NCBI RefSeq assembly: GCF_003334335.1
Contig: NZ_QOWQ01000110.1
Source of the DNA: Escherichia coli
GTDB lineage: Bacteria > Pseudomonadota > Gammaproteobacteria > Enterobacterales > Enterobacteriaceae
Length of the DNA stretch: 1,325 bases
Direction: 5' to 3' (one strand)
Shown: in pieces, positions 21 to 1,325 of the stretch
Layout: each line of letters begins with the position of its first letter
How positions within the stretch are numbered: the stretch's first letter is position 1
Notes under the pieces: generated by a model
The model's input: only the letters and a program-made list of their open reading frames with translations
Told to the model about the DNA's origin: nothing
Databases searched by the model: none
Made by a program: the position numbers and the translations under genes

Positions 21-1325
<1,305 letters not shown>

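Follow-up and report, generated by a model that had tools for sequence, protein, structure and literature searches.

A Paired Polymorphism at the Tip of Helix 45 in the 23S rRNA Genes of Escherichia coli

The DNA analysed here, referred to as the window, is a stretch of 1325 nucleotides from Escherichia coli that consists of 20 nt of spacer followed by the 5' 1305 nt of a 23S rRNA gene (rrl) of the E. coli type. The Rfam covariance model RF02541 gave a score of 1243 bits, compared to a gathering score of 50, and the window was thereby identified as bacterial large subunit (LSU, 23S) rRNA. The match covered model positions 1-1346 with the 3' end cut off, and window position 21 corresponds to both 23S nucleotide 1 and model position 1. 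The 20 nt of spacer showed no differences from the 20 nt upstream of all seven rrl genes of K-12 MG1655. We searched 5,426 complete genomes, all of them E. coli, by megablast with the window; 23S genes were found in every genome, and the rrl places totaled 37,985. Twelve rrl places were on plasmids, and some genomes had up to 21. The full 1325 nt was matched at 100% identity in many independent strains, including WG5, B7A, TUM18780, and APEC37. Annotated 23S genes in many complete genomes match the entire window at 100% identity, so that it looks like a functional rRNA copy, as the original prediction had proposed; it is a normal E. coli rrl gene and not a pseudogene. The features of the window are listed in Table 1.

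Table 1. Features of the 1325-nt window, in window coordinates.
Feature	Position	Strand	Evidence or comment
Last 20 nt of spacer/leader before mature 23S rRNA	1..20	+	Rfam LSU model starts at window 21
23S rRNA gene, domains I-II and start of III	21..1325	+	RF02541, 1243 bits; 100% identity over 1325 nt
Helix 45 hairpin (23S 1164-1185)	1184..1204	+	9-bp stem CAGCGACAC/GUGUUGUUG, UAU loop; fold, Rfam, alignment
A at 23S 1171, 5' side of covarying pair (rrlB: G)	1191..1191	+	rrl comparison; pair columns 18-25
U at 23S 1178 (rrlB numbering), 3' side of covarying pair (rrlB: C)	1197..1197	+	
UAU triloop	1193..1195	+	rrlB UUAU tetraloop; O157:H7 UGU; O111/O103/D9 UGAU

The window was compared to all seven rrl genes of K-12 MG1655. 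For rrlB, which normally serves as the 23S reference (J01695 numbering), the 20-nt leader was included. Window positions 1184-1206 read cagcgaCACtatGTGttgttggg, and the hairpin proper of helix 45 occupies 1184-1204; the original prediction had placed a variant tip at 1186-1206, an offset of 2 nt from the hairpin, although the tip change itself was real. The helix 45 numbering used here agrees with the table entry "H45 CGCUUAUGC 1170-1178" of Yokoyama and Suzuki (PMC2441807). Exactly three differences separated the window from rrlB, all of them at the helix 45 tip: G1171A, C1178U, and one missing loop U. The rrnB sequence given in the prediction was correct, with rrlB, rrlC, rrlD, rrlE, rrlG, and rrlH all reading GACGCTTATGCGTTG at the tip (CGC-UUAU-GCG). 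The prediction was likewise accurate in describing an inner stem pair changed from G-C to A-U (window 1191 A vs. G and 1197 T vs. C), a loop shorter by one nucleotide (UAU vs. UUAU, one T being absent relative to rrlB), and no departure from rrlB anywhere outside the tip. The same three differences were the only ones found in comparison to rrlD, rrlE, and rrlG.

When the seven K-12 copies were aligned as the prediction had recommended, six differed from the window at the tip and rrlA matched. The helix 45 of rrlA (b3854) reads GACACTATGTGTTG, the same as in the window (CAC-UAU-GUG), and the CAC form is no departure from K-12 as such, rrlA having the same tip. With its identical helix 45, CAGCGACACUAUGUGUUGUUG, rrlA nevertheless differs from the window at positions 336 and 1230 (T vs. 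C at both) within the first 1305 nt, which sets the window apart from the MG1655 rrlA copy. It is instead a haplotype with rrlB-like flanks, present at 100% identity in strains such as WG5, B7A, and TUM18780. Maeda et al. (PMC4696680) listed 77 positions at which the seven 23S genes of K-12 differ, found rrlA to be the most divergent copy (0.89%), and ascribed the limited divergence of the K-12 rrn operons to homogenisation by recombination. The helix 45 tip is one of the rrlA-specific sites in that micro-heterogeneity. Our results differ from theirs in nothing substantive; the species-wide counts are the addition here. MG1655 rrlA is 2905 nt long despite having a helix 45 that is 1 nt shorter, because two extra bases (plus three substitutions) are present at 1868-1873, outside the window, and this change is unique to rrlA (PMC4696680).

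The frequency of each form in complete E. coli genomes was determined by allele-specific megablast with 59- and 60-nt queries having 26-nt flanks, so that the 28-nt seed must span the allele-specific base. Counted as allele classes with a shared 28-nt seed and not as exact alleles, the CAC-class query matched 16,763 places in 3,266 of the 5,426 genomes (with a median of 7 places in those genomes that had any) and the CGC-class query matched 21,167 places in 3,584 genomes. CAC-UAU-GUG or a near variant accounts for about 44% of all E. coli 23S copies (16,763 of approximately 37,985). K-12 derivatives gave 1 CAC-class and 6 CGC-class places, as the MG1655 comparison predicts, and the query design is therefore valid. 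The two queries summed to 37,930 of the 37,985 rrl places; the approximately 55 places matched by neither could represent incomplete copies, errors of assembly, or rare alleles. Both classes occurred together in at least 1,424 of the 5,426 genomes (26%, a lower bound by inclusion-exclusion), with the reservation that some within-genome mixtures, or some cases of homogeneity, may be assembly or polishing artefacts, such as the EMG2 mosaic and the aberrant DH5alpha and SW4848 copies described below.

Among the matches listed, all seven copies were CAC-class in ST131 and APEC O2:K1:H4, and all seven were of a CAC-UGU-GUG loop sub-variant in O157:H7. All seven were CGC-class in O26:H11, O111:H8, O103:H2, and O121, some with a UGAU loop. 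These sequences put the number of common tip alleles in E. coli at four or more, divided between two stem classes.

CAC-class copies were located in intact 16S-tRNA-23S-5S operons in three strains: FDAARGOS_401, KMi006, and Ec-U1. The lone CAC-class copy was in rrnA (hemG ... mobB) in FDAARGOS_401 and KMi006 and in rrnH (gmhB ... tRNA-Asp-dkgB) in Ec-U1, and strain 2015C-3905 had a lone CGC-class copy in rrnD. Since the lone copy can lie in rrnA or rrnH, or all seven copies can be of the class, the allele is not bound to an operon; it did not behave as an rrlA marker, being in rrnH in Ec-U1 and in 5-7 copies in many strains. Strict operon specificity is ruled out by the per-strain copy numbers and the rrnA and rrnH locations. 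The suggestion that the variant may mark a particular operon copy or a lineage was borne out to the extent that it is confined to rrlA in K-12 and occupies 5-7 copies or another operon elsewhere. Between an operon-specific and a lineage-specific allele, the former did not stand, whereas the number of copies per genome does vary with lineage, in keeping with concerted evolution.

Each tip class occurred both with C and with T at window 1230, which is 33 nt downstream of the tip, and these four combinations point to recombination between sites only 33 nt apart. Window positions 1230 (C/T), 1239 (G/A), and 1248 (C/T) are polymorphic and lie in the helix just 3' of helix 45. K-12 rrlH and the rrnA copy of FDAARGOS_401 have T, A, and T at these positions; rrlA, O157, and O111 have the T at 1230 only. 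The 23S gene at the rrnA locus of K-12 EMG2 (NZ_CP099588.1, locus 3631-6534, minus strand) is a mosaic, being rrlA-type at 316, 1722-1734, and 2795-2803 and rrlB-type at the helix 45 tip, 1211, and 1868-1873. WG1, a sister K-12 strain of EMG2, has retained one CAC-class copy. The EMG2 mosaic could be either the result of recent patchy gene conversion or an artefact of short-read polishing. Two other 23S copies were aberrant at or near the tip. That of DH5alpha (NZ_CP045741.1) has a 17-nt deletion just 3' of the helix 45 hairpin in a gene of 2886 nt, and that of SW4848 (NZ_CP107284.1) has a scrambled tip (GACGCT--TATGTTGTT-GTTAGG) in a gene of 2878 nt; both are probably assembly errors.

A gapped pattern scan of species-representative genomes returned at least 120 stretches, and the 120 matches listed contained 37 distinct helix 45 sequences. 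The exact 21-mer of the window was the commonest among the matches listed (25 of 120). Its listed carriers included Klebsiella michiganensis (5 of the 5 captured copies), Citrobacter sp. R56, C. amalonaticus, Enterobacter hormaechei, Leclercia, Tatumella, Dickeya, Kosakonia, and Pantoea allii. The rrlB 22-mer made up 9 of the 120 matches listed, for example in Enterobacter cloacae, Citrobacter youngae, Pantoea agglomerans, and Ewingella. More than one helix 45 sequence was found among the captured copies of at least 11 assemblies in the matches listed. Because these assemblies mix helix 45 sequences, the tip can be called hypervariable; the original prediction had described it so, and the 37 distinct sequences agree with that description.

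Minimum free energy folding of the window form produced an uninterrupted hairpin of 9 bp with a UAU triloop (-10.4 kcal/mol), and the rrlB form produced an uninterrupted hairpin of 9 bp with a UUAU tetraloop (-13.8 kcal/mol). The hairpin dominates the ensemble for both forms. In the Rfam LSU model, helix 45 of the window falls on the consensus stem with canonical pairing throughout and zero non-canonical marks. The fold that the prediction had proposed as a check thus came out in its favor, the two-sided change preserving the 9-bp helix. K-12 rrlB is the same as the window everywhere except at the tip and forms the same 9-bp helix; it has G1171-C1178 where the window has A-U and a UUAU tetraloop where the window has UAU, and its hairpin is 3.4 kcal/mol more stable.

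Covariation was assessed in an alignment of 28 distinct enterobacterial-type helix 45 sequences taken from the matches listed. Across the 28 sequences, the 9-pair helix had 99.6% of its cells paired, compared to 24-60% when the partner strand was slid. The covariation score of the helix was 0.255; shuffled alignments had a mean of 0.182, with 0 of 500 shuffles reaching the observed score, and the slid controls were at or below 0.121. The pair 1171-1178 (columns 18-25) was A-U in 20 sequences, G-C in 7, and unpaired in 1, so that A-U is the majority state and the rrlB form is the less common one in this 28-sequence sample. No one-sided change and no G·U at this pair occurred among the 28 distinct Enterobacterales sequences. 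The two sides of 1171-1178 change together and keep their pairing beyond what was seen in the shuffled and slid controls, as is expected of a compensatory pair. The absence of G·U fits rapid compensation and transfer of the tip as a unit equally well and does not discriminate between them.

Helix 45 is also a site of intervening sequences (IVSs), and the statement in the original prediction that Salmonella carries IVSs at this tip agrees with the published literature. Pei et al. (2009; PMC2672173) reported IVSs at helix 25 and helix 45 in the 23S rRNA of S. typhimurium LT2 and, citing Burgin et al. (1990), noted that they are excised by RNase III. A helix-45 IVS has also been reported in Campylobacter (PMC2801512) and Coxiella (PMC4990558), and a review describes E. 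coli as being without IVSs (PMC8708148). According to Gregory et al. (1996), as cited in PMC8708148 and PMC2672173, E. coli 23S rRNA with Salmonella IVSs is functional. A functional Tn5-derived insertion was recovered at H45 1170-1178 in E. coli (PMC2441807). The helix-45 IVSs of Salmonella, Yersinia, Campylobacter, and Coxiella occupy the same site as the difference described here, at a tip tolerant of changes in sequence and length. However, IVSs are insertions of about 80-430 nt that are excised by RNase III to leave a fragmented 23S rRNA, whereas in the window there is only one exchanged base pair and a loop that differs by 1 nt. No helix-45 IVS was present in the window, its helix 45 being 21 nt without an insertion, 1 nt below that of rrlB.

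Taken together, these data make it highly probable (roughly 90%) that the tip form of the window is an old, neutral or near-neutral allele of a permissive hairpin tip, constrained by pairing and spread among rrn copies by conversion or recombination. Enterobacterial 23S rRNA would have two major long-standing classes at this site, CAC-UAU-GUG (A1171-U1178 with a triloop) and CGC-UUAU-GCG (G1171-C1178 with a tetraloop). The natural IVSs and the engineered insertion suggest that the tip is permissive for changes in sequence and length, and the sole evident constraint would be that the stem stays paired. Because the stem must stay paired, substitutions would appear as two-sided, compensatory changes. 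Both classes segregate within E. coli, and exchange between the seven rrn operons by recombination and gene conversion could homogenise a genome toward one class or leave mosaics such as K-12, with its six G-C copies plus rrlA. The tip difference is most likely neutral or nearly so for ribosome function, and we infer that gene conversion is the mechanism of its spread. A subtle effect on folding or assembly is conceivable, given the difference of approximately 3.4 kcal/mol and the difference in loop size between the two hairpins.

One alternative scenario is that of a specialised ribosome, in which the A-U pair and triloop alter an interaction or an assembly step and 50S subunits of the rrlA type behave differently. 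The confinement of the CAC form to rrlA in K-12 would suit such a role, as would the 3.4 kcal/mol and one loop nucleotide by which the hairpins differ, and Maeda et al. raised the possibility of functional heterogeneity among rrn operons (PMC4696680). The allele, however, is found in 1 to 7 copies depending on the strain, whether in rrnA, in rrnH, or in all operons, and entire lineages run on one class or the other. Constraint at the tip also appears to be weak, because a Tn5-derived insertion leaves the ribosome functional and relatives carry natural IVSs, and this too argues against specialisation. We found no support for a specialised function and regard it as improbable. Somewhat less probable still is that the two tip classes are non-neutral and form a balanced, trans-specific polymorphism in the Enterobacteriaceae that tunes 50S assembly or a surface interaction; if this were true, at least 26% of E. 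coli genomes, those in which both classes occur, would make two functionally distinct ribosome populations.

The remaining alternatives have next to no likelihood. When rrlB is the sole yardstick, the three changes look private to one copy or strain, as would a compensatory double mutation that had recently arisen de novo, or an error of sequencing or assembly, but the CAC-class tip is present at 16,763 rrl places in 3,266 genomes and in K-12 rrlA, the identical 21-mer occurs in about 12 other enterobacterial species among the matches listed, and the whole 1325-nt window is matched at 100% by many independent assemblies. A private mutation or sequencing error is refuted by the species-wide counts and by the same 21-mer in other genera. 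Similarly, the use of helix 45 as an IVS site by Salmonella and others could bring to mind an IVS remnant or precursor, or a decaying rRNA pseudogene; the hairpin, however, is 21 nt without an insertion, and elsewhere the window agrees perfectly with the LSU model and with functional annotated genes. With zero extra sequence at the tip, this scenario is refuted as well.

The helix 45 tip difference is thus real, was correctly read in the original prediction, and is ordinary and already known in kind. The label "variant" stems only from taking rrlB as the reference, the form in the window being the commoner one in the Enterobacterales sample. Its biological weight is small: a textbook compensatory polymorphism at a permissive hairpin tip and a known difference among the K-12 rrn operons. 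In practice the tip could be of modest value, as a means to type rrn copies or lineages and to track gene conversion among rrn operons. RrlB does not represent the consensus at the helix 45 tip for E. coli or for Enterobacterales, a caveat for the design of probes and primers, for the calling of rRNA variants, and for the mapping of reads.

Exact enterobacterial helix 45 sequences, flanked by sequence of the E. coli type, were also found on contigs labelled as Marinobacter sp. B9-2 (567 bp), Thalassobaculum fulvum (624 bp), a MAG of Bacteroidales (2.4 kb), and a MAG of Pseudomonas. These are most likely due to contamination or mis-binning.

Other paired positions in the 23S window were polymorphic. 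U157 and A162 are the closing pair of the hairpin AGUGUGU-UUCG-ACACACU (window 151-168); the 23S genes of FDAARGOS_401 (rrnA) and 2015C-3905 (rrnD) have both sides swapped, with A at 157 and T at 162, and the window has the K-12 state. E. coli 23S rRNA thus has a second polymorphism in which both sides change and the pair is kept. In addition, G305A together with GC376-377AT, relative to the window, was found in K-12 rrlC, KMi006 rrnA, and Ec-U1 rrnH. Positions 305 and 376-377 lie on opposite strands of one long helix in the Rfam alignment, because of which these changes look linked, and they are possibly another compensatory change.
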